From Escherichia coli (lineage in GTDB: Bacteria > Pseudomonadota > Gammaproteobacteria > Enterobacterales > Enterobacteriaceae): DNA of 64,000 nt. Below the pieces are notes generated by a model. That model was given only the letters and a program-made list of their open reading frames with translations. It was not told where the DNA came from and made no database searches. Below, one piece after another: positions 11,906-63,115 of this stretch (position 1 is its first letter; each line of letters starts with the position of its first letter). The stretch lies in assembly GCF_003991155.1 (NCBI RefSeq), contig NZ_CP031293.1; one strand, written 5' to 3'. The translations under genes were made by a program, and so were the position numbers.

Positions 11906-11906
11906 T

Positions 11907-13340: not shown

Positions 13341-13415
13341 TTAATATCCTGTTCTTTCTGTATGACTCATACAGAATTCCTTTATTGATTGTCATTATCA
13401 CGACAACAAAATTTT

Positions 13416-14468: not shown

Positions 14469-14573
14469 AATAATGCCCTCAATTTAAAAACATAACTTAT
14501 TGCGATATGGTTACATTAAGGGCAAAGCATCTCTAATGACTTTAGCTCAACGATTAATAACATTTTTTCATTA

Positions 14574-14590
14574 ATTTAAGTTGGTTAAAT
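14574..14590. promoter_or_regulatory. Candidate LysR-type (T-N11-A) dyad in the ybhH/ybhD divergent region
   Basis: ATTTAA-GTTGG-TTAAAT inverted repeat lies between ybhH (start 14468) and ybhD (start 14652). Assignment to YbhD is inference only. Confidence 0.3.
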
Positions 14591-14651
14591 GCAGTTAAAA
14601 TTTTTAACGGTCAGCCACCCAAAATCGACGCTTCCATTTTCCGGAGTAATA

Positions 14652-45435: not shown

Positions 45436-45981
45436 ATCCACCCAGTCGCGAAAATGGCCTGCGTTATTGCCAGAGGTAATAAAACCTTTGATTAACGTTA
45501 CTCATACTGGTAGCACCTTCATGTACCTCTCTTTTTTACGAAAAATCAAAAGAGCTAACTAAGGTCATAATTCGCATGAATCATTAACCATTTGTTATTT
45601 TCAACATTATTTTTACATTAAGCAGAGATGAATTGCAGTGAAATTCGACTTAAATTTTATGAAATGCATTTACTCATGGCTAAACCCATATCACTAAAAT
45701 GCAAATTAGAAGTAGATCACAAATACCTCAATACACCAAATCAAGTTAATTTTAAAAATTTAACATTCATGACATTAGTTGACATAACACACTGAATTAA
45801 CATGAGAATTTAACAACATACTTTAAACAATCATTTCCCGAAAGACATTTTGAAAATAGATCAATTGCAACATTACGGTCAGATAAAGACACTCCTGTGA
45901 TATTAAACCTGTGCCGTTATGAACGGCCATAAATACGACGTGTGTAACTTATTTTACTCTCTGTCTTACAAAGGATTACCC

Positions 45982-46431
45982 ATGAAGAAAGCAACACTTG
46001 TGATTGGCGTTATTGGCGCGGACTGCCATGCAGTAGGCAATAAAGTTCTGGACCGCGTTTTTAGCAACCATGGCTTCAGAGTCATTAATCTGGGCGTAAT
46101 GGTCAGCCAGGACGAATATATTGATGCGGCCATTGAAACTGGCGCTGACGCGATTGTCGTCTCCTCTATCTATGGGCATGGCGATATCGACTGTCTGGGC
46201 ATGCGCGAACGCTGCATCGAGCGTGGACTGGGGGACATCCTGCTCTATGTGGGCGGTAACCTGGTGGTCGGAAAACATGACTTCGCTGACGTGGAAACCA
46301 AATTCAAAGAGATGGGATTTGATCGCGTCTTTGCCCCAAGTCATGACTTAGAAGATGTTTGTCAGCTGATGGCACACGATATCAACCAACGTCATGACGT
46401 TGATACTCGTATTCTTGAAGAGGCAATCTGA
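45982..46431 (+). CDS. glmS: Glutamate mutase (methylaspartate mutase) small B12-binding subunit sigma, 149 aa
   Basis: ORF 45919..46431 trimmed to the ATG at 45982 after [29 protein letters not shown] carries the DxHxxG cobalamin-binding motif and aligns to clostridial MutS/GlmS. Not the glucosamine-6-P synthase glmS. Confidence 0.88.
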
Positions 46432-47819
46432 TGCAAATCGTCTCTGTCGATATTGGATCGACGTGGACCAAAGCAGCCCTCTTCGCCCGGGAGGGGGATG
46501 CGTTAACGTTGGTTAACCACGTACTGACCCCAACCACCACCCATCATCTGGCGAAGGGGTTTTTCTCCAGCCTGAACCTGGTGTTAAACGTAGATAATGC
46601 CCTCCCCCTGTTTAACAACGGTGAGGTTGCATTGAAGTATTCCTCCTCTGCCAAAGGTGGGCTGGCGGTTGCCGCAATGGGATTGGTGCCTTCTATCACC
46701 CTGGAAACCGCGAAAGTAACCGCTCACTCTGCGGGGGCTAAAATTGCGCAATATTACGCCTACAAGCTGAACCGCCGTGATATCCAGGCACTGGAAGAAA
46801 CGCAGCCCGATATTCTCTTGTTCACCGGCGGCACCGACGGCGGAGAAGAAAGCTACGGCCTGAATAACGCCCGTGTGCTGGCAGAATCCAAACTCGACTG
46901 CGCCATTATTTATGCCGGAAACCGGGATATTCAGGACGAGGTGCAGGAGATCCTAGGGCATAAAGACCTGACCATCGTCGACAACGTTCTGCCCGATCTT
47001 GACCATCCGAACCCTTTAGCTGCACGCCAGGCTATCTGCGACATATTCCTTAAACGCATCGTTAAAGGGAAAGGGCTGGATGTCGTTGTTGATAAAACAG
47101 GCGAAGAACCAATGCCGACACCGTGGACAGTCTTTGAACTGGTTAAGGCAATCAGTAATGTCGATCACAGCTGGAAAGAGTTCATGCTGATCGACATGGG
47201 TGGCGCAACCACCGATGTCTATTCCGCCTGTGCCAACACGCTCTCGCCCGACACCGTTTTACACGGCGTACCGGAACCCTTCGTGAAACGGACGGTGGAA
47301 GGCGATCTGGGAATGCGCGTCTCGGCAATGGTGGTTGGTGAAAGTGCGAAAGAGTTAGTCAATGTGAATTTTGCTCAGCAACCCGCACAGCTGGACGCTT
47401 TTTATCATTACCTCCGTCATCTAGTCGCTCATCCCGACTACTTACCCGCGAATGCAGAAGAAAAATATTTCGATACCGTCCTGGCCGGACTGTGTGTGGG
47501 TTATGCCACCGAAAGACATGCGGGCACCAAAAAAGAGGTCTGCACCTGCGTCGGCAATGTCGATTTACAGATGGGACGTGACCTGACAACCGTGCGTAAA
47601 GTCGTCGGATCCGGCGGATGGCTCTCGCGTGCCAGTCAGTTCGATATGCATCACTGGTTGAAATACCGCGAGTTAAACGACGACGGTAAACGCATTCTCT
47701 TACCGACCGAATTTGAATATTACCGCGATTCCCGGGGGCTATTACCACTGCTGGCAAACGTCGCCAGAGTCGATCCGCTGGCCGCCGCGCGCACCAGTAT
47801 TCAATGCTTAACCCTATAA
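46431..47819 (+). CDS. glmL: Glutamate mutase accessory protein MutL/GlmL (ASKHA-fold, putative reactivase/chaperone), 462 aa
   Basis: [18 protein letters not shown]... is an actin/HSP70-like phosphate-1 motif. It sits between the S and E subunits as in clostridia. The ATG overlaps the glmS TGA. Confidence 0.8.
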   Translation: MQIVSVDIGSTWTKAALFAREGDALTLVNHVLTPTTTHHLAKGFFSSLNLVLNVDNALPLFNNGEVALKYSSSAKGGLAVAAMGLVPSITLETAKVTAHSAGAKIAQYYAYKLNRRDIQALEETQPDILLFTGGTDGGEESYGLNNARVLAESKLDCAIIYAGNRDIQDEVQEILGHKDLTIVDNVLPDLDHPNPLAARQAICDIFLKRIVKGKGLDVVVDKTGEEPMPTPWTVFELVKAISNVDHSWKEFMLIDMGGATTDVYSACANTLSPDTVLHGVPEPFVKRTVEGDLGMRVSAMVVGESAKELVNVNFAQQPAQLDAFYHYLRHLVAHPDYLPANAEEKYFDTVLAGLCVGYATERHAGTKKEVCTCVGNVDLQMGRDLTTVRKVVGSGGWLSRASQFDMHHWLKYRELNDDGKRILLPTEFEYYRDSRGLLPLLANVARVDPLAAARTSIQCLTL

Positions 47820-47837
47820 CAATTAAGGCTGCAATCA

Positions 47838-49283
47838 ATGGAACTTCGAAATAAGAAATTAACCCATGACGAATTCATGACCGAGCGGCAACAGGTACTG
47901 AAAACCTGGGAAACCGGCAAGGATGTTGAAAACTTTGAAGATGGCGTTAAATACCAACAAACCATTCCTGAGCATAAACGCTTCTCTCTTGCCCTGCTGA
48001 AAGCAGACAAGGAAGGTAAAACTCTTAGCCAACCGCGCGCAGGCGTGGCGCTGATGGACGAACACATCGAACTACTGAAAACACTACAAGAAGAGTGCGA
48101 TCTGCTGCCGAGCACCATCGATGCATATACCCGTCTGAATCGGTACGAAGAAGCGGCTGTAGGGATTAAAAAATCCATCGAAGCCGGAACCTCTAAACTG
48201 AACGGTTTACCGGTCGTTAACCACGGCGTCGCAGCTTGCCGTCGCCTCACCGAAACTCTGCAAAAACCGCTACAGATCCGCCACGGCACGCCAGATGCGC
48301 GTCTGCTGGCTGAAATCTCGATGGCCAGCGGCTTTACCAGTTATGAAGGCGGCGGCATTTCCTACAATATTCCGTATGCCAAGCGCGTAACGCTGGAAAA
48401 ATCGATCCGCGACTGGCAGTACTGCGACCGTTTAATGGGGATGTATGAAGAACACGGGATCCGCATCAACCGCGAACCGTTTGGCCCACTAACGGGTACC
48501 CTGATCCCGCCGTTTATCTCGCACTCTATCGCGATAATCGAAGGCTTGCTGGCGCTGGAACAGGGTGTGAAATCTATCACCGTTGGTTATGGACAGGTCG
48601 GCAGCCTGACGCAGGATGTTGCGGCGATCCAGTCTCTGCGTGAACTTGCACACGAATATTTTCAGAGCTATGGCTATACCGACTATGAATTAAGTACCGT
48701 GTTTCACCAGTGGATGGGCGGCTTTCCGGAAGACGAATCGAAAGCGTTCGCTATTATCTCCTGGGGCGCAGCCGTCGCGGGGATGTCTGGTGCCACCAAA
48801 GTCATCACCAAAAGTCCGCACGAAGCCTGGGGCATCCCGACTGCCGCTGCCAACATTCAGGGGCTGAAAGCCTCCCGCCAGATGCTCAACATGGTCAACG
48901 AGCAGAAATTCCCGCCGTGCCCTGCGGTTGAACTGGAAATTGAACTGATTAAGAGCGAGGTTCGCGCGGTACTGAATAAAGTGTTCGAACTGGGTAATGG
49001 TGATATTGCGCGCGGTACGGTGCTGGCATTTGAAGCGGGCGTACTGGATGTGCCGTTTGCGCCAGCCGCCTGCAACGCGGGCAAAATTCTTCCGGTCCGT
49101 GACAACACCGGCGCGATACGCGTACTGGAAGCCGGAGCCGTTCCATTGCCAAAAGATATTCTCGACCTCCACCACGATTACGTTGCGGAACGCGCACGCT
49201 TTGAAGGACGCCAACCGACATTCCAGATGGTTGTAGATGACATCAATGCTGTATCCCACAGTAAATTAATAGGAAGACCATAA
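47838..49283 (+). CDS. glmE: Glutamate mutase large catalytic subunit epsilon, 481 aa
   Basis: MELRNKKLTHDEFMTERQQVLKTWETGKDV...QPRAGVALMDEHIELLKTLQ...PSTIDAYTRLNRYEEA is collinear with clostridial MutE/GlmE. Confidence 0.9.
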   Translation: MELRNKKLTHDEFMTERQQVLKTWETGKDVENFEDGVKYQQTIPEHKRFSLALLKADKEGKTLSQPRAGVALMDEHIELLKTLQEECDLLPSTIDAYTRLNRYEEAAVGIKKSIEAGTSKLNGLPVVNHGVAACRRLTETLQKPLQIRHGTPDARLLAEISMASGFTSYEGGGISYNIPYAKRVTLEKSIRDWQYCDRLMGMYEEHGIRINREPFGPLTGTLIPPFISHSIAIIEGLLALEQGVKSITVGYGQVGSLTQDVAAIQSLRELAHEYFQSYGYTDYELSTVFHQWMGGFPEDESKAFAIISWGAAVAGMSGATKVITKSPHEAWGIPTAAANIQGLKASRQMLNMVNEQKFPPCPAVELEIELIKSEVRAVLNKVFELGNGDIARGTVLAFEAGVLDVPFAPAACNAGKILPVRDNTGAIRVLEAGAVPLPKDILDLHHDYVAERARFEGRQPTFQMVVDDINAVSHSKLIGRP

Positions 49284-50524
49284 TGAAAATAAAACAGGCT
49301 CTGTTCACCGCTGGCTACTCCTCATTCTATTTCGATGACCAGCAGGCGATAAAAAACGGAGCGGGTCATGACGGCTTTTTTTATACCGGGGAGCCGGTAA
49401 CACAGGGGTTTAACGCCGTTCGTCAGGCCGGGGAGTGCGTATCAGTACAGTTGATTCTGGAAAACGGCTCGGTCGCCGTAGGTGACTGTGCTGCCGTACA
49501 GTATTCCGGGGCAGGTGGTCGCGATCCACTGTTCCTCGCTGAGCACTTTATTCCGTTCCTCAACGACCATATCAAGCCATTACTGGTAGGCCGCGATGTG
49601 GATGCTTTCCTGCCGAATGCCCGTTTCTTCGACAAATTGCGTATTGACGGCAACTTGCTGCATACCGCCGTGCGCTACGGATTATCACAGGCGCTGCTTG
49701 ATGCTACCGCGCTGGCAACCGGCCGTCTGAAAACTGAAGTAGTTTGCGATGAATGGCAGTTGCCACGCGTGGCGGAATCCATTCCATTATTTGGTCAGAG
49801 CGGGGACGATCGATATATCGCCGTCGATAAGATGATCCTTAAGGGCATCGACGTGCTGCCCCATGCACTGATTAATAACGTCGAAGAGAAACTGGGCTTT
49901 AAAGGTGAAAAACTGCGCGAATATGTCCGCTGGCTGTCGGATCGTATTCTGAGCAAGCGCACCAGCGCACGCTACCACCCTACCCTGCACATCGATGTAT
50001 ACGGCACTATCGGTCTGATCTTCGATATGGATCCGCTTCGCTGTGCGCAATACATCGCCAGCCTGGAAAAAGAAGCGCAAGGCCTGCCGCTCTACATTGA
50101 AGGGCCGGTCGATGCCGGTAACAAGCCCGATCAAATTCGCCTGCTGACCGCGATTACCAAAGAGCTGACGCGCCTCGGTTCCGGCGTGAAAATTGTGGCC
50201 GATGAATGGTGTAACACCTACCAGGATATTGTTGATTTCACTGATGCCGCCAGTTGTCACATGGTGCAAATCAAAACCCCGGATCTGGGCAGTATTCACA
50301 ACATCGTCGATGCGGTTCTTTACTGCAACAGCCACAGCATGGAAGCGTACCAGGGCGGCACCTGCAATGAAACTGATGTCAGTGCCCGCACCTGTGTCCA
50401 CGTCGCCCTTGCCGCTCGCCCTATGCGTATGCTGGTAAAGCCAGGGATGGGCTTTGACGAAGGCCTCGATATCGTCTTCAACGAAATGAATCGTACTATC
50501 GCGCTGTTGCAGGCTAAGGATTAA
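49283..50524 (+). CDS. mal: 3-methylaspartate ammonia-lyase (enolase superfamily), 413 aa
   Basis: MKIKQALFTAGYSSFYFDDQQAIKNGAGHDGF...CAAVQYSGAGGRDPLF...HMVQIKTPDLG closely parallels Clostridium tetanomorphum MAL. TAATG overlap with glmE. Confidence 0.92.
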   Translation: MKIKQALFTAGYSSFYFDDQQAIKNGAGHDGFFYTGEPVTQGFNAVRQAGECVSVQLILENGSVAVGDCAAVQYSGAGGRDPLFLAEHFIPFLNDHIKPLLVGRDVDAFLPNARFFDKLRIDGNLLHTAVRYGLSQALLDATALATGRLKTEVVCDEWQLPRVAESIPLFGQSGDDRYIAVDKMILKGIDVLPHALINNVEEKLGFKGEKLREYVRWLSDRILSKRTSARYHPTLHIDVYGTIGLIFDMDPLRCAQYIASLEKEAQGLPLYIEGPVDAGNKPDQIRLLTAITKELTRLGSGVKIVADEWCNTYQDIVDFTDAASCHMVQIKTPDLGSIHNIVDAVLYCNSHSMEAYQGGTCNETDVSARTCVHVALAARPMRMLVKPGMGFDEGLDIVFNEMNRTIALLQAKD

Positions 50525-50527
50525 CAA

Positions 50528-51898
50528 ATGGCTCGTTCTTTTAAAGTCTTATCGCCAACGGCAATCCTCGGGTATGGATTCCCGGAAGAGAGCTTCCGCA
50601 AAGCGATGGCAGAATCGCCCGATCTGATCGCCGTTGATGCAGGCTCTTCCGATCCTGGCCCCCACTACCTCGGAGCGGGCAAACCGTTTACCGATCGCGC
50701 AGGGGTCAAGCGCGATCTGCGCTATATGATCACCGCAGGCGTGCAAAATAATATACCGGTGGTGATCGGAACAGCTGGCGGTTCTGGTGCCGCACCACAC
50801 CTGGAGTGGTGCCGAGAAATAATTCATGAGATTGCCCGGGAAGAGCGACTCGTGTTCTCGATGGCGCTGATCCCGGCAGACGTTGACAAAGCCATCGTCC
50901 ACCAGGCGCTGGATAACGGCAAAATCACGGCGCTGGATTTTGTCCCGCCGTTAACCCACGACGCGATTGACGAAAGTACGTATATCGTTGCGCAAATGGG
51001 CATCGAACCCTTCCAGCGGGCGCTGAAAGAAGGCGCGCAAGTGGTGCTGGGCGGGCGCGCTTACGACCCGGCCTGCTTTGCTGCGCTCCCGATCATGCAA
51101 GGCTTTGATGAAGGTCTGGCGCTGCATTGTGGGAAAATCCTTGAATGCGCGGCAATCGCCGCAACGCCCGGCTCAGGCTCTGACTGTGCGATGGGCATCA
51201 TTGATGACAACGGCTTTACGCTGAAGACATTTAATCCGAAGCGTAAATTTACCGAAACGTCAGCGGCTGCACACACACTGTATGAGAAATCCGATCCCTA
51301 CTTCCTGCCTGGACCTGGCGGCGTGTTGAACCTGAAAGGCTGCACATTTAAAGCGGTCAATGACGGCGAAGTGTACGTCAGCGGTTCTAAGCATGAAGAA
51401 ACGCCGTATGCCCTGAAACTGGAAGGTGCGCGACGGGTGGGCTTCCGCTGTCTGACCATCGCAGGAACGCGCGACCCGATCATGATCGCCGGGATCGATA
51501 AAATCATCGATGAAGTCAAAACCAGCGTTTCACGTAACCTGTCGCTCGACGATGACAGCATTCGCATCAATTTCCACCTGTACGGCAAAAACGGGGTGAT
51601 GGGCGACCATGAACCGATGCAAACTGCCGGGCATGAGCTGGGGATTGTCCTTGATGTAGTTGCACCGACCCAGGAAATTGCCAATAGCGTTTGCTCGCTG
51701 GTGCGCTCTACCATGCTGCACTACGGCTATGAAAACCGCATCGCTACCGCAGGCAATCTGGCGTTCCCGTTCTCCCCTTCTGATATCCAGGGCGGGCCGG
51801 TATACGAATTTTCCATATATCACCTGATTGAAGCCAACGACGCTCTGCGTTTTGATTTCCATATTGAACAGGTGACGCCAGAAGGAGTTCAGGCATGA
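50528..51898 (+). CDS. Uncharacterised protein, AtuA/DUF1446-like, 456 aa
   Basis: MARSFKVLSPTAILGYGFPEESFRKAMAESPDLIAVDAGSSDPGPHYLG... The family call is from memory of DUF1446 architecture and its habitual pairing with DUF4387; it was not checked against profiles. Confidence 0.75.
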   Translation: MARSFKVLSPTAILGYGFPEESFRKAMAESPDLIAVDAGSSDPGPHYLGAGKPFTDRAGVKRDLRYMITAGVQNNIPVVIGTAGGSGAAPHLEWCREIIHEIAREERLVFSMALIPADVDKAIVHQALDNGKITALDFVPPLTHDAIDESTYIVAQMGIEPFQRALKEGAQVVLGGRAYDPACFAALPIMQGFDEGLALHCGKILECAAIAATPGSGSDCAMGIIDDNGFTLKTFNPKRKFTETSAAAHTLYEKSDPYFLPGPGGVLNLKGCTFKAVNDGEVYVSGSKHEETPYALKLEGARRVGFRCLTIAGTRDPIMIAGIDKIIDEVKTSVSRNLSLDDDSIRINFHLYGKNGVMGDHEPMQTAGHELGIVLDVVAPTQEIANSVCSLVRSTMLHYGYENRIATAGNLAFPFSPSDIQGGPVYEFSIYHLIEANDALRFDFHIEQVTPEGVQA

Positions 51899-52212
51899 AA
51901 CAGTCAATTGTCTCACTGGCGCAAGTCATTCGTTCGAAAAATGCCGGACCTTACGAACTGGTTTTAGATATTTTATTTAAAACGAAAGAAAACTATGAGC
52001 GAGTTAAATCATCAGGGCAATTAACCCCAGAACTGATTGCGCGCTTATATCATGTTGAACCTGACTTTATTCACCGTATTGTCTGGTTTGATCCTTCTAA
52101 CGCAGTAAAAATCGTCATGCCACGAGATATTATCTCCGGGAATGTAGGTGACAATGATGTCTATGGTGCACAGCAACATGCACCTTTATTAAATATGAGT
52201 TTCGATTTGTAA
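51895..52212 (+). CDS. Uncharacterised protein, DUF4387-like, 105 aa
   Basis: ...VIRSKNAGPYELVLDILFKTKENYERVKSSGQLTPELIARLY...DVYGAQQHAPLL matches my recollection of the DUF4387 signature. ATGA start/stop overlap with the upstream gene. Confidence 0.75.
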   Translation: MKQSIVSLAQVIRSKNAGPYELVLDILFKTKENYERVKSSGQLTPELIARLYHVEPDFIHRIVWFDPSNAVKIVMPRDIISGNVGDNDVYGAQQHAPLLNMSFDL

Positions 52213-52295
52213 AAATCCGAATACTTTTAGCCAACTGACATCCCGTCACTTATTGCAGTTCAACACTTCAGCTATTTGTAAGGTTGTAATAGCAG

Positions 52296-52327
52296 GTAGA
52301 TGCCTGAATCTCTATTCAGGCATCTAC
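52296..52327 (+). terminator. Strong intra-cluster hairpin (14-bp perfect stem): terminator, attenuator or processing site
   Basis: GTAGATGCCTGAAT-CTCT-ATTCAGGCATCTAC is followed by TTCTCCTGATTCTGATTT. It lies between the DUF4387-like gene and the transporter gene. Confidence 0.55.
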
Positions 52328-52372
52328 TTCTCCTGATTCTGATTTATCGCCGTGCACCTGATGGAGGAAAAA

Positions 52373-53653
52373 ATGAAGAAAATAAGTTTAACCACGATGA
52401 TTCTTTTGGCGCTGGTACTTGGAATGATTATCGGCGTAGTGCTCAATAACACTGCTTCACCGGAAACCGCAAAACTCTATGCGCAAGAAATATCGATATT
52501 CACGACGATTTTCTTACGACTGATAAAAATGATTATCGCTCCGTTAGTGGTCTCTACCCTGGTGGTAGGTATAGCTAAAATGGGAGATGCCAAAGCCCTT
52601 GGTCGTATTTTTTCTAAAACACTCTTTTTATTTATTTGCGCCTCATTGCTGTCAATTGCCTTAGGCTTGATAACGGTAAATTTCTTCATGCCAGGCACAG
52701 GAATTAATTTTGTTGCACACGGTGCCGAAACCACCGGAGTGGTCGCGTCAGAACCCTTTACACTAAAAGTATTTATTTCGCATGCTTTCCCCACCAGCAT
52801 TGTCGATGCCATGGCACACAATGAAATTTTGCAAATCGTGGTGTTCTCAATTTTCCTCGGCTGTAGCCTGACGGCGATTGGTGAGAAAGGCAGCGCCATC
52901 GTTCACGCCTTAGATTCGCTGGCACATGCCATGTTAAAGCTCACTGGCTACGTCATGCTCTTCGCTCCCCTGACCGTATTCGCCGCTATTTCAGCATTGA
53001 TTGCTGAACGAGGACTGGCAGTTATGGTGAGCGCCGGGATCTTTATGGGTGAATTTTATTTCACCATGTTGTTACTTTGGGTGCTGCTTATCGGTCTGGC
53101 CATCGTTTATGTCGGCCCCTGCATCAGACGCCTGACCCGTGCCCTTTCGGAACCCGCCCTGCTGGCATTTACCACATCCAGTTCTGAAGCGGCTTTTCCG
53201 GGAACGCTTGAAAAACTGGAGCAATTTGGCGTTTCCCCCAAAATTGCCAGCTTTGTCTTACCCATTGGCTACTCATTTAATCTCGTTGGATCAATGGCCT
53301 ACTGCTCCTTCGCCACAGTTTTCATCGCCCAGGCCTGCAATATCCATTTATCCATCGGTGAGCAAATCACCATGCTGTTGATCCTGATGTTGACCTCGAA
53401 AGGAATGGCTGGCGTACCACGCGCCTCAATGGTGGTTATCGCCGCCACGCTCAACCAGTTCAATATTCCGGAAGCGGGGCTGATCTTGCTGATGGGCGTT
53501 GATCCGTTCCTTGATATGGGGCGTTCCGCGACAAACGTCATGAGCAACGCAATGGGCGCTGCGATGGTGAGTCGGTGGGAAGGCGAACATTTCGGCGAGG
53601 GCTGTCGGGGTAAAGCATTAAAACCCAATGAATCGAACGTTGCTCTGCCCTGA
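52373..53653 (+). CDS. Dicarboxylate/amino acid:cation symporter (DAACS; GltP/DctA-like), 426 aa
   Basis: ORF 52352..53653 trimmed to the ATG at 52373 after GGAGG. MKKISLTTMILLALVLGMIIGVVLN... is polytopic with the family-typical region GVPRASMVVIAATL. Confidence 0.88.
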   Translation: MKKISLTTMILLALVLGMIIGVVLNNTASPETAKLYAQEISIFTTIFLRLIKMIIAPLVVSTLVVGIAKMGDAKALGRIFSKTLFLFICASLLSIALGLITVNFFMPGTGINFVAHGAETTGVVASEPFTLKVFISHAFPTSIVDAMAHNEILQIVVFSIFLGCSLTAIGEKGSAIVHALDSLAHAMLKLTGYVMLFAPLTVFAAISALIAERGLAVMVSAGIFMGEFYFTMLLLWVLLIGLAIVYVGPCIRRLTRALSEPALLAFTTSSSEAAFPGTLEKLEQFGVSPKIASFVLPIGYSFNLVGSMAYCSFATVFIAQACNIHLSIGEQITMLLILMLTSKGMAGVPRASMVVIAATLNQFNIPEAGLILLMGVDPFLDMGRSATNVMSNAMGAAMVSRWEGEHFGEGCRGKALKPNESNVALP

Positions 53654-53760
53654 GGGGGATCTTAAGCAATCAGAAGCCAATGACTACGCATTTTTATAAG
53701 CCGGATCATGAAGTTAGACGGCAATTAAGTAAAACTAACGTTTAAGGTGAAAAGTGAAAT

Positions 53761-55413
53761 ATGTCCAAACCATTTATCTGGCAAGAACCGTTTCTACAAA
53801 ATAAAGACGGTACAGAATATACATTAATTAGCGATCAACATATTACAGTAACGGAATTAGACGGCGAAGAAGTGATAAAAATCGCTCCTGAAGCATTAAC
53901 GCTGCTTGCCCGGCAGGCATTTTATGAAGCCTCTTTTTTCTTACGTTCCGCTCATTTGCAACAGGTCGCCAGCATTCTTAACGATCCGCACGCCAGTAGT
54001 AATGATAAATACGTTGCGTTGCAGTTATTACGTAATGCTGAAGTCTCAGCAAAAGGGGTATTACCCAACTGTCAGGATACCGGCACCGCAACTATTGTTG
54101 CCAGTAAAGGGCAACAGATATGGACCGGAGGTAACGACGCTGAAGCCTTAAGCAAAGGCATTTACACCACTTTTCAGGAAAATAATCTGCGCTTTTCACA
54201 AAATGCGCCACTGGATATGTATACCGAAGTCAATACGCAAACCAATCTACCGGCGCAGATTGATATCAGCGCCGTCGCTGGTGATGAGTACCATTTTCTC
54301 TGTATTAATAAAGGGGGCGGCTCTGCCAATAAAGCCGCGCTTTATCAGGAAACCAAATCCCTATTGCAACCAGAAAAACTGACCGCATTTTTAATCGAAA
54401 AAATGAAATCGCTGGGCACCGCTGCCTGCCCGCCTTACCACATCGCCTTTGTCGTCGGAGGGCTTTCAGCCGATCAAACCTTAAAAGTTGCCAAGCTGGC
54501 CTCAACGAAATATTACGACAATTTGCCCACCAGCGGAAACGAGCAAGGACAAGCATTCCGTGATATTGAGCTGGAAAAAGTATTGCTCGAGGCCAGTCAG
54601 CAATTTGGTATTGGTGCGCAATTTGGGGGTAAATATTTCGCTCATGATATTCGCGTCATTCGTCTGCCGCGTCACGGTGGCTCTTGCCCGATAGCTATGG
54701 CGCTCTCCTGTTCTGCGGATCGCAATATCAAAGCAAAAATTAACAAGCACGGTATCTGGCTGGAAAAACTCGAACACAATCCGGGGCAATATATTCCAGC
54801 CTCACTGCGGGAAGAAAATCACGCGCAACATGTACAGCTGGATCTAAACCGTCCGTTGCGTGACGTGATGCAGGATCTCGCCAGATTACCGGTAGGCACC
54901 CGCGTGTCGTTAAGTGGTCCCATCGTAGTGGCGCGCGATATCGCCCACGCCAAAATAAAAGCGCGGCTGGATAGCGGCGAACCGATGCCGGATTACCTGA
55001 AGCATCATATTGTCTATTACGCTGGCCCGGCGAAAACACCGGAGAACATGGCCTGCGGTTCACTGGGTCCAACCACGGGCGGTCGAATGGACGGTTATGT
55101 CGATACCTTCCAGGCGGCTGGCGGCAGTCTGGTGATGTTATCGAAAGGTAACCGCAGCCAGCAGGTCACCGATGCCTGTCACAAACATGGCGGCTTCAAT
55201 CTGGGGAGTATTGGCGGTGCAGCTGCGTTACTGGCGCAAGAATATGTCAAAAGTCTGCGTTGCCTGGAATACCCGGAGCTGGGTATGGAAGCGGTGTGGA
55301 TGATGGAAGTGGAAAATTTACCCGCATTCATCCTGGTAGATGATAAAGGCAATAATTTCTTTAGTCAGTTTGAGCAGCAACACCGCTGCGCCAGTTGCCC
55401 TGCGGGACATTAA
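53761..55413 (+). CDS. fumD: Class I (Fe-S) fumarate hydratase family enzyme, probable mesaconase/fumarase, 550 aa
   Basis: [30 protein letters not shown]...[10 protein letters not shown]...[11 protein letters not shown] is FumA/FumB-like over its full length. The fumD symbol follows the O157:H7 class I fumarase I recall being reported next to the glutamate mutase genes. Confidence 0.85.
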
Positions 55414-55422
55414 GGAAAATGA

Positions 55423-56025
55423 ATGGAAGCGCGAATTTCAACTGAACGGCATGTGCAGCGCCAGCAGAAATTGAAGGAACAGGTCGATACGCGCGTCGCG
55501 GCGGCGATAGAGAAAAAAGGGATTTTGATTGTTTTCACCGGCAACGGCAAAGGGAAATCCACTGCCGCGTTTGGTACTGTGACGCGCGCGGTGGGTCATG
55601 GCAAAACGGTGGGGGTTGCGCAGTACATCAAGGGGCAATGGGACAACGGCGAATACAACCTTCTCCAACCGCTGGGGGTTGAGTTTCATATTATGGGAAC
55701 CGGTTTTACCTGGGAGACACAGAACCGGCAAGCGGATATCGACGCGGCGAAAGAGGTCTGGTCGGAAAGCAAACGGATGCTGGCTGACAAGCGTTACGAC
55801 TTAGTGGTGCTTGATGAGCTGACCTATATGCTGGCTTACCATTATCTGGACACCGAAGAAGTGATCGCTTCTCTGCAAAACCGCCCGGCACAACAAAGTG
55901 TCATTGTCACCGGACGCGGTTGCCACAGTCAGATATTAAAAATGGCGGATACGGTCAGCGAAATCCGCCCCGTCAAACATGCTTTTGATAACGGCATTCA
56001 GGCGCAGCCGGGTATCGACTGGTAA
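55423..56025 (+). CDS. ATP:cob(I)alamin adenosyltransferase, CobA/BtuR/CobO family, 200 aa
   Basis: ...GILIVFTGNGKGKSTAAFG (P-loop)...DLVVLDELTY...VIVTGRG... is typical of the CobA family. Starts 9 nt after fumD. Confidence 0.88.
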   Translation: MEARISTERHVQRQQKLKEQVDTRVAAAIEKKGILIVFTGNGKGKSTAAFGTVTRAVGHGKTVGVAQYIKGQWDNGEYNLLQPLGVEFHIMGTGFTWETQNRQADIDAAKEVWSESKRMLADKRYDLVVLDELTYMLAYHYLDTEEVIASLQNRPAQQSVIVTGRGCHSQILKMADTVSEIRPVKHAFDNGIQAQPGIDW

Positions 56026-56027
56026 TA

Positions 56028-56059
56028 ACTGCGCCTGGCATCCCGCCAGGCGCAGGTTT
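56028..56059 (+). terminator. Terminator between convergent cobA-like and LysR genes
   Basis: CTGCGCCTGG-CATCCCG-CCAGGCGCAG (10-bp stem) followed by GTTTT. Confidence 0.7.
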
Positions 56060-56964
56060 TACATCTCCTGCGGTACGACCGATTTCGCCAGCAACCATTC
56101 ACGAAATTGCTGCAAGTGCGGTGAGTCAGACTTCTCTTCCTGCCACGTCATAATAAAACGATTACCGGTACGAATAGGCACATCACAGGGAATCACCATA
56201 TCGCCACTATCCAAATCATGTTGAATAGCGAACCGTGGTAACAGCGCCACGCCGAGATTAGAGCGCACGGCGGCAATCAGCATTGAAAGCAAATCGAAAC
56301 GTGGTCCGTTATTGACCAGCGGACTGCTAACGCCAGATAAAGCAAACCACTCTTCCCAGCCAGTAATACGGGTGCTTTGATGCAGAAGTGGTAACTCAGT
56401 AAGCAGTTCTGCCACTGACAGTTTTTGATCGGACATTGCAAGCAAACTGCCGCTGCATACCGGCAAAATCTCCTCATCAAAGAGATATTCTACTTCCGCC
56501 CAGGGCGCGCAAAAATTTTCGCGCATAATGACAGCATCGTACTCCCGATTAAGAAAATCGCCGTTATTAGCTAAAGAATGAATATTAACAATAATATCGG
56601 GATGTAACTTTGTGAATTCATGTAAATTTGGGATTAACCAGTGGGTACTAAAAGTAGGATTAACGGCAAGTTCAATAACCTGAACCGTAGGCTGCCAGGT
56701 CATAATGGTATTGGTATCGCGTTCCAGCTTATTTAATGTTTCTTTTACTATCCCCAGGTAATACTTCCCTGCATCATTAAGAAAAATGCGTTTTTTAGAG
56801 TGTGAAAATAACGGAGTACGTAAAAATTCCTCCAGCGCACTTACTTGTCTGAATACTGCACTTTGGGTTAACGCTAACTCCTCTGCCGCTCTGGTATAAC
56901 TTTCATGACGTGCGACGACCTCAAAAGTCACCAGCAGTTCCGTTTTAGGTATTTTTCCTCGCAT
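56059..56964 (-). CDS. LysR-family transcriptional regulator (GcvA-like), 301 aa
   Basis: MRGKIPKTELLVTFEVVARHESYTRAAEELALTQSAVFRQVSALEEFL contains the wHTH, followed by a LysR substrate-binding domain. Confidence 0.88.
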   Translation of the reverse strand: MRGKIPKTELLVTFEVVARHESYTRAAEELALTQSAVFRQVSALEEFLRTPLFSHSKKRIFLNDAGKYYLGIVKETLNKLERDTNTIMTWQPTVQVIELAVNPTFSTHWLIPNLHEFTKLHPDIIVNIHSLANNGDFLNREYDAVIMRENFCAPWAEVEYLFDEEILPVCSGSLLAMSDQKLSVAELLTELPLLHQSTRITGWEEWFALSGVSSPLVNNGPRFDLLSMLIAAVRSNLGVALLPRFAIQHDLDSGDMVIPCDVPIRTGNRFIMTWQEEKSDSPHLQQFREWLLAKSVVPQEM

Positions 56965-57234: not shown

Positions 57235-58905
57235 TTATTTTTGATTTATAGCATATCCTTCTAAGAATTTTTGCGAAGCTGCAATATCTGGGGTAAAGAC
57301 CCGATCCTGGTCGACAAACGGCACGACTTTTCTGTATTCGGTAAACATTGCTTTGGTGGATTTCCCTAATGCCAGTTGTGGATCGGCCTGCAACCGTAAA
57401 TCGAGAGCCTGTGCGGAATGCATCAGTTCAATGCCATAAATCACGTTCAGATTATCGACAACCTGTTTCAATCTTCTGGCCGCGTGGTCATTATTGGCAC
57501 CGGTATCTTCTATACCTCCGGCAACCGGTTGAATATCGAAAGAAACCGGGTTAGCGAGATCGACATTTTCCGCATGCAGCGCAACAAACGGGATATGTAA
57601 TGAACCGAAGCCATGACCTTTATTACCTGCTGCCGACAGGAAGCGTGACAAACCGGTAAAGTGATCATCTTCAAGATGCAGCGAGCGGCGCATACTGTTA
57701 TGTGAAACATGCACTAACGCCACGGTCAGACGCTGGGTGGCAAGCGCAACCGGTAACGATTCGAAATTCGCCGTCGGGAAGATCCCACCGCTGATTGCCC
57801 CATCTTTAACAAAATATTGCGCGACCTGACTGGAGTCCTGATACGCTTTGTCTGCATTCAGCACGGTTGCCGGGTTGTCATCGGAACTGTTGATCTGCAC
57901 GGTAATGGTATCTTCAGCATCGCGCAACGCGCGCATTGCCTCAGAAATGGTATACACCGTCGTTCTGAACGATAACGGATCCTGCAATGCACGTTTGTCA
58001 TGCTTATGCCATAAATAAGAACCACTTAACGCATCGCGAATCTCTTTAGCGGAATCAGCCAACTGCGGGAAAGGACGCACGGCGATCGACTGCGGCAGTA
58101 CCGGCGCGACATTGCCATTCAACGCTTCCAGACTCATAGCGAAAACCACCGGGCTGACATTCAGCAACTGACGTGCCGAACGAACAGCTTCGATAGCGTA
58201 GGCTGTCCCGACGCTGTTGTTCGATAAAATCGCCAGCATATCTTTACCCTGCGGTACCAGTGGCTTAAGTCCCACTTTCGCCAGCGCGTCACCACCGCTC
58301 ATTTGCACGCCATTTACTCGGGCTTTCCATTCCCCCATCATCACCAGACCAACGTGCGAAGCGAGCATAATATCCGCTGCGCCGATACTTCCCCGCACCG
58401 GAATTAACGGTGTAACGCCGCGATTAATAAATTCGGCATACAACTCGGCAATATAAGGCTGTGCGCCGGTTTGCCCATGCAGCATGGTATTTAAACGTAA
58501 TACCATTGAAAGGCGTGCCAGATAATCCGGTAACATCGGACCAACGCCCGCAGAATGGGCGCGCAGCGCGGCAGCATTAAATTTTTTCGACGCGTCAATC
58601 ACCTCAGGCGTTAAATTTCCTTTGGCATCAAATATGGGCTGATCTTTATTTAGCCCCACGCCCACGGTTAAGCCATAAACAGGCGTACCTGAATGCGCGG
58701 CAGTCATCACCAGATCATAACTTTTTTCCATGCGCTCCATGGCGTTCGACGCGATTTTGACGCCGTTATCACCTAATGCAATTGACCAGGCCTGGTCAAT
58801 GGAAAGATGTTCGCCATCCAGCGTAATGGTTGATTTCGCCATCGCAATGGAGCAAACGCTCCAGAGCACAACGGTGACAGTGACTCTTCGTATCAATCCT
58901 TTCAT
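57235..58905 (-). CDS. Aromatic amino acid (histidine/phenylalanine) ammonia-lyase-family protein with an N-terminal signal peptide and no Ala-Ser-Gly MIO motif, 556 aa
   Basis: MKGLIRRVTVTVVLWSVCSIAMA|KSTITLDGEHLS... aligns collinearly with HutH from residue ~25. The MIO region reads GSIGAADIMLASH where HAL has GSVGASGDLAPLAH. Confidence 0.85.
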   Translation of the reverse strand: MKGLIRRVTVTVVLWSVCSIAMAKSTITLDGEHLSIDQAWSIALGDNGVKIASNAMERMEKSYDLVMTAAHSGTPVYGLTVGVGLNKDQPIFDAKGNLTPEVIDASKKFNAAALRAHSAGVGPMLPDYLARLSMVLRLNTMLHGQTGAQPYIAELYAEFINRGVTPLIPVRGSIGAADIMLASHVGLVMMGEWKARVNGVQMSGGDALAKVGLKPLVPQGKDMLAILSNNSVGTAYAIEAVRSARQLLNVSPVVFAMSLEALNGNVAPVLPQSIAVRPFPQLADSAKEIRDALSGSYLWHKHDKRALQDPLSFRTTVYTISEAMRALRDAEDTITVQINSSDDNPATVLNADKAYQDSSQVAQYFVKDGAISGGIFPTANFESLPVALATQRLTVALVHVSHNSMRRSLHLEDDHFTGLSRFLSAAGNKGHGFGSLHIPFVALHAENVDLANPVSFDIQPVAGGIEDTGANNDHAARRLKQVVDNLNVIYGIELMHSAQALDLRLQADPQLALGKSTKAMFTEYRKVVPFVDQDRVFTPDIAASQKFLEGYAINQK

Positions 58906-58955
58906 TGTGTTTCCTTATCATGATGAGTTTAACAACGGGTTACTGCGACAACGTT

Positions 58956-59906
58956 TTAATTTGTTCTATCTGTTTTCCCCCGCCGGACAATACTGGTCAC
59001 CAGGCGAGCGGCAACTTTCGCAGTTAAATTATCGCGGTCCAGGTCCGGGTTAAGTTCGGCAATATCCGCAGCAATCAACTTCTCGCTACCGGCGATTAAA
59101 TTCACAATGGCTTCAGTAATATTTAACGGCACGCCTAACGGTGATGGAGCAGAAACACCGGGCGCCTGATAACCTGGTAAAACATCGAGACAAATCGTTA
59201 AATAAATGGCGTCACAAGCCTGAATATCTGCCGAGAGCGCATTAGCGATCTCATGCAAACCACGTTCAAATTGCAGAGATTCGTCCAGCCAATAACGCAC
59301 ACCGAGACAATCAGCGCGATCAAATAACGCCTGAGTATTGGCAAAACGACTTATTCCCAGCACGCGATAATGAAACGGTTTGCCATGCTGCGCGTTCCAC
59401 TCTTGCATCTGACGAAACGGCGTACCTGAATTGGCTTGTTCCGCCATCCGTAAATCAAAATGCGCGTCAAGGTTCACAATCAGTAACCGCTGAATATCCG
59501 GACGCGACTGCATAATCCCCTGAAATGTTCCCCACGCCACTTCATGACCGCCCCCCAGAACCACCGGTAAACTGCCGCGCGCAATGGCTGTAGATACGTT
59601 AGCCGCCAGACGATTTTGTGCGGATTCCAGCGCGTGGTCCTCGCTTTGTACATCGCCCATATCGAAAATAGCGCCTTCACAGAGCACTGGCATATTTCCC
59701 AACATGCTGCGCAACGCGCCCGGTCCGCCTGCTGCACCCGCTCGCCCATCATTACGTTGCACTCCGTCATCAACGGCAAAACCAATCAGCGTACAACCGC
59801 CGTGGCTTTGTTCACTAAACGGTTGCACATGCTGATGCCAGCGAGTGCTGATGCCGGTTTCCTGCGAGTCAACACGCCCACTCCACGGCAAAAATGTTTG
59901 CTTCAT
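58956..59906 (-). CDS. hutG: Formimidoylglutamase (arginase fold), 316 aa
   Basis: ORF 58956..59945 trimmed to the ATG at 59904-59906 after GGAG. MKQTFLPWSGRVD... with GGGHE, DAHFD and CLDVL metal-site motifs. TAATG overlap with hutI. Confidence 0.88.
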   Translation of the reverse strand: MKQTFLPWSGRVDSQETGISTRWHQHVQPFSEQSHGGCTLIGFAVDDGVQRNDGRAGAAGGPGALRSMLGNMPVLCEGAIFDMGDVQSEDHALESAQNRLAANVSTAIARGSLPVVLGGGHEVAWGTFQGIMQSRPDIQRLLIVNLDAHFDLRMAEQANSGTPFRQMQEWNAQHGKPFHYRVLGISRFANTQALFDRADCLGVRYWLDESLQFERGLHEIANALSADIQACDAIYLTICLDVLPGYQAPGVSAPSPLGVPLNITEAIVNLIAGSEKLIAADIAELNPDLDRDNLTAKVAARLVTSIVRRGKTDRTN

Positions 59907-61117
59907 TACCAACTCCTTTTTCCGCCGACAATAAGCCCCTGGCAAGGCTGATGCCCAAACCAGTAAGCCAGTTCACGTGGATGATTAAGATCCCAGACCG
60001 CCATATCCGCCCGTAATCCCGGTGCAAGTTCACCCCGGTCAATAAGTCCAAGTGCCTTTGCCGCATTACGCGTAACGCCCTGAACGGCTTCCAGCGGCGT
60101 CATGCGAAACAGCGTACAGGCCATATTGATCATCAATGGCAATGACATATTGGGAGACGTTCCGGGATTATGGTCCGTGGAGATAGCAATCGGCACACCT
60201 GCGGCCCGCAGAGCGACAATCGGCGGCAGATGGGTTTCGCGCAGGAAGTAATAAGCACCGGGAAGCAAAACCGCCACTGTTCCAGCCGCTTTCATGGCGG
60301 CGATCCCCGACTCGCTCAGGTACTCCAGATGATCGCAGGAGAGTGCAGAAAACGCCGCTGCCAGCGCCGCGCCTTGCTGGTCAGAAAGCTGTTCGGCATG
60401 CAGTTTTACAGGTAATCCATAGCTTTGCGCTTTACTGAAAACGCGCCGTACCTGCTCTGGAGTAAAGGCGATGTTTTCACAAAAAGCATCAACTGCATCA
60501 ATCAGCCCCTGTTCATGCAACACGCACATCCAGTCGCAAAGCGCCGTAATGTAATCATCACTGCGCCCGGCAAACTCTGGCGGCAGGCTGTGCGCCCCGA
60601 GAAACGTAGACTGAATATGTAACCCGGTAGATTGCTGCAAGCGGCGGATCACGCGTAAACAACGTGCTTCATCTTCCAGCGTTAAGCCATAACCCGATTT
60701 GATTTCAAGCGTACTGACGCCTTCACGTTGCCAGTTTCGCAGTCGCTGCGCCGCCAGTTCAAACAACTGTGTTTCGCTGGCTGCCCGCGTGGCATTAACC
60801 GTAGATAAGATCCCGCCGCCCGCTCTGGCGATATCTTCATAAGCCACGCCTTGCAACCGCATCTCAAACTCGTTCGCCCTCTGGCCGCCATACACCAGAT
60901 GTGTATGACAATCCACCAGACCGGGTGTCAGCAACTTACCCTGTAGATCGTGTTCCTCTGTAATATCAGCCGTCAGTTCACGGGGGATCTGCGTGGCCTT
61001 CCCAAGCCAGACAATCGAGTCACCACGGCTGATTAATGCCCCCTTTTCAATCACTCCCCAATCGTTAGCGGAAAGCGTCGCCAGCGTGGTATTTCGCCAG
61101 AGCGTTAATGCACTCAT
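59906..61117 (-). CDS. hutI: Imidazolonepropionase, 403 aa
   Basis: ORF 59906..61150 trimmed to the ATG at 61115-61117 (MSALTLWRNTTLATL...). It carries the amidohydrolase motif GLVDCHTHLVYGG. ATGA overlap with hutD. Confidence 0.9.
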   Translation of the reverse strand: MSALTLWRNTTLATLSANDWGVIEKGALISRGDSIVWLGKATQIPRELTADITEEHDLQGKLLTPGLVDCHTHLVYGGQRANEFEMRLQGVAYEDIARAGGGILSTVNATRAASETQLFELAAQRLRNWQREGVSTLEIKSGYGLTLEDEARCLRVIRRLQQSTGLHIQSTFLGAHSLPPEFAGRSDDYITALCDWMCVLHEQGLIDAVDAFCENIAFTPEQVRRVFSKAQSYGLPVKLHAEQLSDQQGAALAAAFSALSCDHLEYLSESGIAAMKAAGTVAVLLPGAYYFLRETHLPPIVALRAAGVPIAISTDHNPGTSPNMSLPLMINMACTLFRMTPLEAVQGVTRNAAKALGLIDRGELAPGLRADMAVWDLNHPRELAYWFGHQPCQGLIVGGKRSW

Positions 61118-61704
61118 AAGGATTTTTCCCCTCGTAGATAATAAAGCCACCAGCCCGCCAGCTCACCGACGGAGACTTTCTTCCGTGGTACGAAACGCCA
61201 GGGCCTGCCATCAGGTGCAACCAGCCATAACAACATATTTGCCGCGACAAACACCCTTTTCTTGCCGCTTATCCACTCCCCTTCACACAGCGTGAACAGG
61301 CCCGCTTGCGCAAGTGACGGAGGACGCCAGTCAACGGCACTTTGCACCCGCAACATCCCCGCATCGCCTTCCCGCGCCATAACATTCAGATCGCGAACCC
61401 CGCCGCCCAGCAGCTGGCAATCAGGCATAGCTTCTCCAGGGAAAATTAAGGCGGGATCGTGACGTTGCAGGTTGATGATCGAATCGGCAAACGTTAGCTT
61501 CACCCCTTCCCCGTCGAGAATCGCGAGGCCACGAACCACGCCAGGCCACGCTGAAAAAGAGCCATCCTGACTGACATTCGCCATACTGATGCGCAACAAC
61601 CAGTTTTCATCATCGGGCCAGGCAAGCAGCTGTCGGGTAAACCCCCCGCCGTTGCGCCACGGTTGCAGCGGCTTATCCATTGCAGAAATCAGCATCGGTT
61701 CCAT
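61114..61704 (-). CDS. hutD: HutD-family protein, 196 aa
   Basis: ...PLQPWRNGGGFTRQLLAWP... is the HutD signature (W-x-NGGG-x-T). Start codon uncertain: ATG at 61704 or the in-frame ATG three codons downstream (61695). Confidence 0.8.
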   Translation of the reverse strand: MEPMLISAMDKPLQPWRNGGGFTRQLLAWPDDENWLLRISMANVSQDGSFSAWPGVVRGLAILDGEGVKLTFADSIINLQRHDPALIFPGEAMPDCQLLGGGVRDLNVMAREGDAGMLRVQSAVDWRPPSLAQAGLFTLCEGEWISGKKRVFVAANMLLWLVAPDGRPWRFVPRKKVSVGELAGWWLYYLRGEKSL

Positions 61705-61705
61705 A

Positions 61706-63115
61706 TTAAGACTCGGGATAAATCGTATAAGCAGGAACGCAGGTGGTGCGTTTGGCCCACGGGTAATAGATAACGGCGGTAATTAACAAGCCGACAATCC
61801 AGGAGATATCCGCCCCATCCATCAGGACAGAAATGGGTCCCTGATACAGTTTTTGATTCAGGAAGGGGATCTGCACCAACACGCCTACGCCATAGCACGT
61901 CAAAGCGGTTTTGTTATACGCGCCATAACGCCCTTCCGGGGTATAAAGTGCCGGAATATCGGTTTTACCTTGTGAGATGAAGTAGTAGTCGATGAGATTA
62001 ATGGCGCTCCACGGCACAAATACCGTCAACAGCAGCAGAACGAAGTTTTTGAAATTATTCAAAAAATCTGCGCTTGCCGCCAGCGCGACGACCATCGACA
62101 ACAGCACGAACCCTACAACGTAGGCAGCACGAACACGCTGTGAAACCTGACTGCGATTATTAAAGGCGCTGACGGTCGCCAGAATCGACATAAAGCCACC
62201 GTAGGCATTCAAACAGTTCACCGTCAGTTTGCCGCAAACAATCACCGTATAAATCAGAATGGCGAAGGTGGGTCCGGCTAACTCACCCATAAAACCAACC
62301 TGATCCTTCAGGAAGTTAGCACCACAGGCCGCAACAAGCACGCCAAACGTCATGGCACATTGCGCGCCAAGCGTGGTTCCCAGAAAGGTGGCAAAGAAGA
62401 TTGATTTTGCTGGCGTATCAGAGGGTAAATAGCGGGAATAATCAGAGGCGTAAGGGGCAAACGTTAATTGCCATCCGGCAGAGAGAGCAATCGTTAATAA
62501 AAAGACCGACAGACTAAATGGCTTTTGACCAAATGCCGCAGCCACATCGTAGTGACCGCTAAGTTGAGTGGCCAGGTAAATAAACCCCAGAATACTTAAT
62601 ATCCCTGCAACACGGCCAACGACGTGAATAAGTTTATAACCGACCAATGCGATCATCGCGGTCAGCATGCCGAAAATAATAATTCCGGTCGATGCCGATT
62701 CGAAACCAAATATCCGGTTAATCGCCTGACCGGATAATACTGTACCCGTCGCGGCAAATCCAAGGTACATAATAATCACCATCAGTAACGGTAGCGCCGC
62801 TCCTTTAACGCCAAAGCGGATACGACTGGAGATCATCTGGGGTAATCCCAGCTTTGCCCCCTGCGACGAGTGCAATGCCATTACTGCACCACCAATAATA
62901 TTACCGATTAATAAACCAATTATTGCTGACATGGCTTCGGAGCCAAAAATAATCGCTAACGCGCCGTCCACCACAGCGGTAATTTGTAAGTTAGCACTTA
63001 GCCATAAAGTAAACTGACTGGATGGCGAGCCGTGGCGAGCAGACTCAGGAACGGCGTTAATCGTATTTGATTCTAATACTGGCTTTTTACTGCGGATAGG
63101 GCTGCTTGATTCCAT
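61706..63115 (-). CDS. NCS1-family (purine-cytosine/hydantoin-type) permease, 469 aa
   Basis: ORF 61706..63160 trimmed to the ATG at 63113-63115 after AGGAG. MESSSPIRSKKPVLESNTINAVPESARHGSPSSQFTLWLSANLQI... is polytopic. Confidence 0.85.
   Translation of the reverse strand: MESSSPIRSKKPVLESNTINAVPESARHGSPSSQFTLWLSANLQITAVVDGALAIIFGSEAMSAIIGLLIGNIIGGAVMALHSSQGAKLGLPQMISSRIRFGVKGAALPLLMVIIMYLGFAATGTVLSGQAINRIFGFESASTGIIIFGMLTAMIALVGYKLIHVVGRVAGILSILGFIYLATQLSGHYDVAAAFGQKPFSLSVFLLTIALSAGWQLTFAPYASDYSRYLPSDTPAKSIFFATFLGTTLGAQCAMTFGVLVAACGANFLKDQVGFMGELAGPTFAILIYTVIVCGKLTVNCLNAYGGFMSILATVSAFNNRSQVSQRVRAAYVVGFVLLSMVVALAASADFLNNFKNFVLLLLTVFVPWSAINLIDYYFISQGKTDIPALYTPEGRYGAYNKTALTCYGVGVLVQIPFLNQKLYQGPISVLMDGADISWIVGLLITAVIYYPWAKRTTCVPAYTIYPES

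Follow-up and report, generated by a model that had tools for sequence, protein, structure and literature searches.

A candidate citramalate lyase of the CmlAB type in the methylaspartate operon of Escherichia coli

The 64,000 nt stretch of Escherichia coli DNA analysed here (contig NZ_CP031293.1 of assembly GCF_003991155.1; hereafter the window) harbours an operon of nine tightly packed plus strand genes, at 45982-56025, with homology to the methylaspartate pathway of glutamate breakdown (Table 1). Genes were called through Pfam and NCBIfam profile searches and from the RefSeq annotation of an identical strain, E. coli 2016C-3878 (NZ_CP029747.1). The products GlmS, GlmL, GlmE and Mal all score above the NCBIfam equivalog cut-offs, and the FumA model falls under its own cut-off for the protein at 53761-55413. 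The symporter scores below both the GltP and the DctA equivalog cut-offs, and its substrate is consequently only inferred, with glutamate uptake presumed. An earlier note on this DNA covered 45982-55413, from the RefSeq start of glmS to the stop codon of fumD and one gene (cobO) short of the operon end. It listed a symporter, mutase subunits S, L and E, a methylaspartase and a class I fumarase, all of which the Pfam and NCBIfam searches recover where it placed them. It also judged the pathway to be apparently incomplete in cis, lacking a citramalate lyase; this appears to be mistaken, as the two genes following mal, here termed cmlA and cmlB, very probably encode a dedicated lyase that is not of the citrate lyase-like CitDEF type.

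The observation from which that view arose is itself sound. When E. coli CitC, D, E, F, X and G from the cit locus of the same strain were used as tblastn queries against the whole window, the lowest E value was 0.075. For CitD, CitE and CitF it was 0.94, such that the alpha, beta and acyl-carrier gamma subunits are not encoded with the pathway, and the activation genes citC, citX and citG are likewise absent from the window (best E = 0.075). RefSeq annotation across the window contains no citrate-lyase-type gene, and neither annotation nor tblastn finds a coenzyme A (CoA)-transferase or CitE-like gene there. The same queries identify clostridial citDEF genes beside mal at 33-51% identity; because they detect these clusters so readily, the negative result for CitDEF is a meaningful one. 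The genome-wide check suggested in the earlier note does reveal citrate lyase genes, as the identical strain has a complete citCDEFXG-citT locus approximately 127 kb from the island (NZ_CP029747.1, 1071043-1077781).

Directly downstream of mal in the glmSLE-mal cluster, cmlA and cmlB are adjacent and co-oriented. Only 3 nt separate the mal stop codon from the start of cmlA, the cmlA stop codon overlaps the cmlB start as ATGA, and the pair is translationally coupled into the operon. Their RefSeq labels are 'acyclic terpene utilization AtuA family protein' and 'DUF4387 domain-containing protein', with cmlA named as a methylaspartate ammonia-lyase in some records. The DUF1446 protein encoded by cmlA is 92.1% identical over its full length (420/456 residues, E = 2.8e-292) to chain A of PDB entries 9ERQ and 9EVF, and the DUF4387 protein encoded by cmlB is 84.6% identical (88/104, E = 5e-57) to chain B. 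The depositors named these chains 'Citramalate lyase, subunit A (cmlA)' and 'subunit B (cmlB)', in entries released in October 2025 and titled 'Citramalate lyase - AMPPNP - citramalate complex' and 'Citramalate lyase - ADP - pyruvate complex'. The E. coli proteins differ from the crystallised enzyme, which is from another host, by 36 substitutions in CmlA and 16 in CmlB.

A Klebsiella genome has, in the same place after mal, a gene to which the crystallised sequence is 98% identical. From this, together with a 2026 preprint (bioRxiv 10.64898/2026.01.16.699985), we infer that the PDB entries represent the Raoultella enzyme. In that work Raoultella planticola cmlAB, a gift of the Berg laboratory, was expressed and is described as cleaving citramalate directly to pyruvate and acetate in vivo; growth dependent on mesaconate, and labelling of leucine derived from acetyl-CoA, both depended on CmlAB. 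Acs was up-regulated in the evolved strains of the same study, which fits with free acetate being the two-carbon product. The conversion of (S)-citramalate to pyruvate and acetate is documented only by the names and titles of the PDB entries and by the Raoultella preprint, and is predicted for the E. coli proteins.

CmlA matches PF07287 at 70.6 bits against a gathering threshold of 22.8, a weak hit that is partial for a protein of this size owing to CmlA being a divergent subfamily. In the CmlA group, glycine-rich loops at residues 39-51, 81-88 and 214-217 are invariant, and across the AtuA family as a whole D42, G44, G87, R177, D180, E253 and E299 each show a conservation of 95% or more. This family comprises 2383 clusters at 50% identity (E <= 1e-3), few of which are CmlA-like at an identity of at least 50%, and includes many paralogues with identities of 33-48%. 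All ten of the long homologues scanned are fusions of AtuA and DUF4387 domains; on account of these and of the ATGA overlap, the cmlA and cmlB products are considered to form one unit. AtuA itself likewise pairs a PF07287 region with a DUF4387 domain, and its proposed reaction resembles that of CmlAB in releasing acetate through breakage of the bond between a tertiary carbinol carbon and CH2-COO-. Unlike CmlAB, it is a single fused polypeptide of around 600 aa acting on a CoA ester, its function is tentatively assigned and its sequence identity to CmlA is low. A literature search on DUF1446 and DUF4387 returned no functional studies. Some homologues carry further domains: P0275 (1096 aa) has a C-terminal family III CoA-transferase domain in addition to the AtuA-DUF4387 fusion, P0350 has an Hsp70-like N-terminal piece and P0346 a DUF2465 domain. 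These additions hint at other substrates and couplings within a little-studied family.

The distribution of lyase genes was surveyed by a scan anchored on mal, using one genome per species, that gave 80 loci with Mal identities of 58-94%. Each was searched with the window proteins and CitC-G within 10 kb, and 45 had full flanks. In half of the loci (40/80; 27/45 with full flanks) cmlA and cmlB directly follow mal, mostly at gaps of 5-105 nt. A further 15 (8/45 with full flanks), from Clostridia, Oscillospiraceae and Erysipelotrichaceae, have citD, citE and citF; eight (7/45) have only a CitE-like lyase; and 17, mostly on truncated contigs, have neither lyase type (3/45). No locus among the 80 combines cmlAB with citDEF. 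The cmlAB-type loci, many of which have a single-chain class I fumarase downstream, come from Enterobacterales, Rhodocyclales (Propionivibrio), Telmatospirillum, Acidobacteriota (Holophaga) and Aminicenantes/Saccharicenans, as well as from Riflebacteria, Spirochaetes, Planctomycetes and Latescibacterota. Non-orthologous displacement of a pathway's final enzyme would be expected to leave such a pattern. Along with the named structures and the in vivo results, this distribution bears out one of three options raised in the earlier note, namely that the DUF1446/DUF4387 pair provides the lyase function.

Much of the surrounding biochemistry has been published. The gene cluster was described, and FumD characterised as a mesaconase, by Kronen & Berg (PLoS One 2015, PMC4682846), who also reported the operon in Salmonella, Klebsiella, Citrobacter, Yersinia and Morganella. 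With mesaconate the O157:H7 FumD had a kcat/Km of 2x10^6, and with fumarate one of 7.5x10^5, in agreement with the mesaconate hydration that the earlier note ascribed to this enzyme; E. coli FumA and FumB hydrated mesaconate too. The authors noted a DUF1446 gene after mal, often mis-annotated as methylaspartase, and presented the missing citramalate-cleaving step as an open problem.

Taken together, these data indicate that the methylaspartate route by which glutamate is turned into pyruvate, acetate and ammonia is encoded in full by the operon, with CmlAB as the citramalate lyase, a reading to which we assign a probability of about 0.88. Glutamate would enter through the dicarboxylate/amino acid:cation symporter (DAACS) family protein. 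It would then be rearranged to (2S,3S)-3-methylaspartate by the adenosylcobalamin-dependent GlmSE, with GlmL as the accessory protein and CobO making the coenzyme. Mal would remove ammonia to give mesaconate, which FumD, as shown for its O157:H7 orthologue, would hydrate to (S)-citramalate. For the enzymatic steps from intracellular glutamate to (S)-citramalate, the demonstration lies in profile scores that exceed curated thresholds or in orthologues that have been characterised. The last, in which the two-subunit CmlAB would split (S)-citramalate into pyruvate and a two-carbon product reported to be acetate, draws its support from synteny and from the near-identity of CmlAB to an enzyme solved with its ligands bound. 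CmlAB would accordingly stand in the place of the unrelated clostridial CitDEF, which depends on an acyl carrier protein, as a case of non-orthologous displacement. The earlier note had expected a dedicated, co-regulated lyase to make the pathway conventional: such a lyase does appear to lie in the operon, but it is of an unconventional kind, leaving the pathway complete but not conventional.

Several points weigh against this interpretation. No primary papers were found behind 9ERQ and 9EVF in a literature search, which returned only the 2026 preprint on CmlAB, and that preprint does not mention ATP and calls the cleavage to acetate direct (bioRxiv 10.64898/2026.01.16.699985). The assignment of the E. 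coli proteins as CmlAB draws on 92% and 85% identity plus synteny. The mutual exclusion of cmlAB and citDEF has a Fisher p value of 2x10^-4 that ignores the phylogenetic relatedness of the loci and is only indicative. In Dictyoglomus a DUF1446 gene follows mal in a cluster that has been listed among those of the clostridial type, where co-occurrence with citDEF is possible (Kronen & Berg 2015, PMC4682846). Finally, under all conditions tried, O157:H7 displayed neither citramalate lyase nor methylaspartase activity, nor glutamate-dependent growth (Kronen & Berg 2015, PMC4682846), and the E. coli operon may be silent or serve another purpose.

These O157:H7 results would suit a pathway whose end point is mesaconate or (S)-citramalate, through excretion, use as an electron sink or another route, with the DUF pair unrelated to it. 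The absence of glutamate growth and expression in that strain (PMC4682846) favours such an end point, as does the ability of FumA and FumB to hydrate mesaconate, by which a dedicated downstream step would not be obligatory for detoxification. Set against this are the translational coupling of cmlAB into the operon, its place directly after mal in 40 loci from many phyla, and the 92% and 85% identity to an enzyme whose solved complexes contain citramalate in one case and pyruvate in the other. A truncated pathway, which the earlier note had put forward, is therefore no longer needed as an explanation and is very improbable. That note had also raised substitution by the host citrate lyase, whereby CitDEF encoded elsewhere would cleave citramalate and the operon would rely on a lyase in trans. 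The complete cit locus in the identical strain, and the homology of clostridial citramalate lyase to citrate lyase (Kronen & Berg 2015, PMC4682846), lend this some appeal. It is contradicted by enzymology, as extract of citrate-grown O157:H7 with citrate lyase at 0.48 U/mg had no detectable citramalate lyase activity, and isocitrate lyase and methylisocitrate lyase were likewise negative for citramalate cleavage (PMC4682846); all three are ruled out as the cleaving enzyme. With citDEF absent from all the surveyed mal clusters that bear cmlAB, and a dedicated lyase encoded in cis, reliance on the host enzyme is scarcely credible.

It is also improbable, if slightly less so, that the E. coli CmlAB has diverged to act on a different 3-hydroxy-acid, with citramalate handled by a CoA-dependent route. 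The diversity of the family, with its 2383 clusters and its paralogues at 33-48% identity, the homologue that has gained a family III CoA-transferase domain, and the mal loci of a third class, which use a CoA-transferase and a CitE-like lyase, all make such a change conceivable. Nevertheless, the window proteins belong to the orthologous group of the crystallised enzyme and occupy the same operon position, and the window has neither a CoA-transferase nor a CitE-like gene. The CoA-dependent route, which combines a mesaconate/citramalate CoA-transferase with a CitE/HpcH-like (S)-citramalyl-CoA lyase, resembles CmlAB in splitting the five-carbon skeleton into pyruvate and a two-carbon unit. It differs in needing a CoA donor and yielding acetyl-CoA, and in its genes being absent from the window.

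The third class of locus is exemplified by Marinobacter (L025, 11265-13323), in which mal is followed by genes for a family III CoA-transferase and an HpcH/CitE-like lyase, indicating a CoA-ester route downstream of mesaconate. A CitE-like gene has the same position in L022, L023, L030, L036, L045, L049 and L064 (Ruegeria, Saccharospirillum, Cellvibrionaceae, Kofleriaceae and others); among the CitE-only loci, neighbouring genes were scanned in L025 alone.

With CmlAB taken as the lyase, its chemistry can be compared with that of the CitDEF-type enzyme of Clostridium tetanomorphum (Buckel & Bobi 1976). Both occupy the same place in the pathway and have the same net reaction, (S)-citramalate to pyruvate and acetate. 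The proteins are unrelated, and CmlAB has no acyl carrier subunit, phosphoribosyl-dephospho-CoA or CitC/X/G activation genes. An acetate carbanion is not easily lost directly from a free carboxylate, and CitDEF acts through a thioester for that reason. CmlAB, unlike CitDEF, binds nucleotide according to the PDB titles, and as the solved complexes hold AMPPNP with citramalate and ADP with pyruvate, nucleotide probably participates in its chemistry. The most plausible route would be transient phosphorylation of the C4 carboxylate, with the acyl phosphate assuming the activating role of the CitDEF thioester. Acetyl phosphate may leave the enzyme, the phosphate may be passed back to ADP, or ATP may be a mere effector.

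A broader and more speculative reading would see CmlAB as a mechanistically new carbon-carbon lyase. Its elements are ATP-dependent phosphorylation of the free C4 carboxylate of citramalate, with an acyl phosphate replacing the thioester of CitDEF; release of acetyl phosphate and recovery of ATP via acetate kinase, or return of the phosphate to ADP on the enzyme; nucleotide-dependent, acetate-releasing lyase activity throughout the AtuA/DUF4387 family, some 2400 clusters including fungal and plant members; and, for the 143 E. coli genomes with hut immediately beside the island, a module that ferments histidine to pyruvate plus acetate. That all of these should hold jointly is doubtful. If the mechanism has already been shown by the PDB depositors, it would be new to the databases but not to them.

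Table 1. Features of the methylaspartate operon and its downstream neighbours in the window
Feature	Position	Strand	Evidence
glmS, B12-binding subunit S of glutamate (methylaspartate) mutase	45982-46431	+	NF002612 253 bits (cut-off 110), PF02310; start as in RefSeq
glmL, glutamate mutase accessory/reactivating protein	46431-47819	+	NF040745 508.5 bits (cut-off 475), PF13941
glmE, catalytic subunit E of glutamate mutase	47838-49283	+	TIGR01503 865 bits (cut-off 390)
mal, 3-methylaspartate ammonia-lyase	49283-50524	+	TIGR01502 544 bits (cut-off 286), PF05034, PF07476
cmlA, putative CmlAB citramalate lyase large subunit, AtuA/DUF1446 family	50528-51898	+	PF07287; PDB match
cmlB, putative CmlAB citramalate lyase small subunit, DUF4387	51895-52212	+	PF14330 134 bits; PDB match
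Dicarboxylate/amino acid:cation (SDF/DAACS) symporter, GltP/DctA-like	52373-53653	+	PF00375 343 bits
fumD, class I fumarase acting as mesaconase	53761-55413	+	NF011921 1286 bits (cut-off 1060)
cobO, ATP:cob(I)alamin adenosyltransferase, final operon gene	55423-56025	+	PF02572 216 bits; RefSeq name cobO
GC-rich hairpin, 11 pairs (9 G-C), between convergent cobO and lysR	56029-56055		pattern match only
LysR-type regulator, candidate operon regulator	56059-56964	-	PF00126, PF03466
hut operon: hutH-like ammonia-lyase, hutG, hutI, hutD, permease, start of hutU	57235-64000	-	RefSeq, PF00221

Downstream of cobO, the hairpin is likely to be a terminator common to the operon and the convergent lysR gene. 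The latter is kept at the same position in 14 enterobacterial loci, and its product may regulate the operon. An Rfam search of 42.5-64 kb identified no families, cobalamin riboswitches included, and promoter-like sites were no more frequent than in shuffled sequence.

The window is the same as the chromosome of 2016C-3878, bar one IS1 copy present only in the latter, and the 10.6 kb from 45500 to 56100 are 100% identical between the two; DNA identity of the region to O157:H7 is 98.5%. Of 5426 complete E. coli genomes, 1117 (about one fifth), O157:H7 among them, contain at least 80% of the 45500-56100 stretch. The island is flanked on one side by cydAB and, in this strain, on the other by the hut operon, which runs past the window end, then rtcB and sucDCBA. 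In O157:H7, which has no hut operon here, lysR is directly followed by sucD, and only 143 of the 5426 genomes have hut beside the island. The hut operon converts histidine to glutamate. In combination, the hut and methylaspartate clusters would provide a route from histidine to pyruvate and acetate, like the 'oxidative histidine pathway' of histidine fermentation recently described for gut anaerobes.

Two plus strand open reading frames, 43988-44932 (314 aa) and 45013-45435 (140 aa), lie at the island's left edge in a stretch of 36% GC. They had no NCBIfam or PADLOC matches and only sub-threshold Pfam hits (E = 0.036 or weaker), are hypothetical in RefSeq and are both present in O157:H7. The IS1 copy of 2016C-3878 that the window does not have lies immediately downstream of them, truncating the second. 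Elsewhere in the window, at approximately 9463-15605, is a core-genome cluster of ybhD (LysR), ybhH (annotated as 4-oxalomesaconate tautomerase, PrpF-like), ybhI (anion permease) and ybhJ (aconitase-family hydratase), which resembles an uncharacterised di- or tricarboxylate pathway and is, by its position, unrelated to the island.

The mal loci contain two further genes that are not found in the window. The first encodes a protein of around 315 aa with a Walker A motif (GDEGSGKST), kept in 33 of the 80 loci (e.g. L043:13002-13949, L056:2857-3906 and L062:551-1453) and absent from every enterobacterial one, which matches no Pfam or NCBIfam family above threshold and has weak similarity to MeaB. 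Found after cmlB in non-enterobacterial loci, this conserved P-loop gene was considered as a third lyase component and rejected, being present also in citDEF-type, CitE-only and lyase-less loci and absent from E. coli. Since it occurs in all four locus classes, it goes with the mutase and mal part of the pathway rather than the lyase, and is possibly a chaperone of a B12 enzyme. The second, of 346 aa, lies between the symporter gene and fumD in nine enterobacterial loci, and was also drawn by Kronen & Berg (PMC4682846). The sole copy scanned (L010:14340-15377) is glutaminase A (glsA), which would let glutamine feed into the pathway as well.

The apparent gap in this operon is real as an observation and is already explained: the question has been public since 2015, and the answer lies in the 2025 PDB entries and the 2026 preprint. 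The system is thus known rather than newly discovered, and nothing here adds to what the field has; the practical value is one of annotation, as the RefSeq labels of cmlA and cmlB are still those of the AtuA family and DUF4387. Once CmlAB is taken into account, the locus reads as a B12-dependent route that is sufficient in itself to take glutamate to pyruvate and acetate, which in some strains the adjacent hut operon would extend back to histidine, and which thereby bears on the use of amino acids by enterobacteria in the gut.

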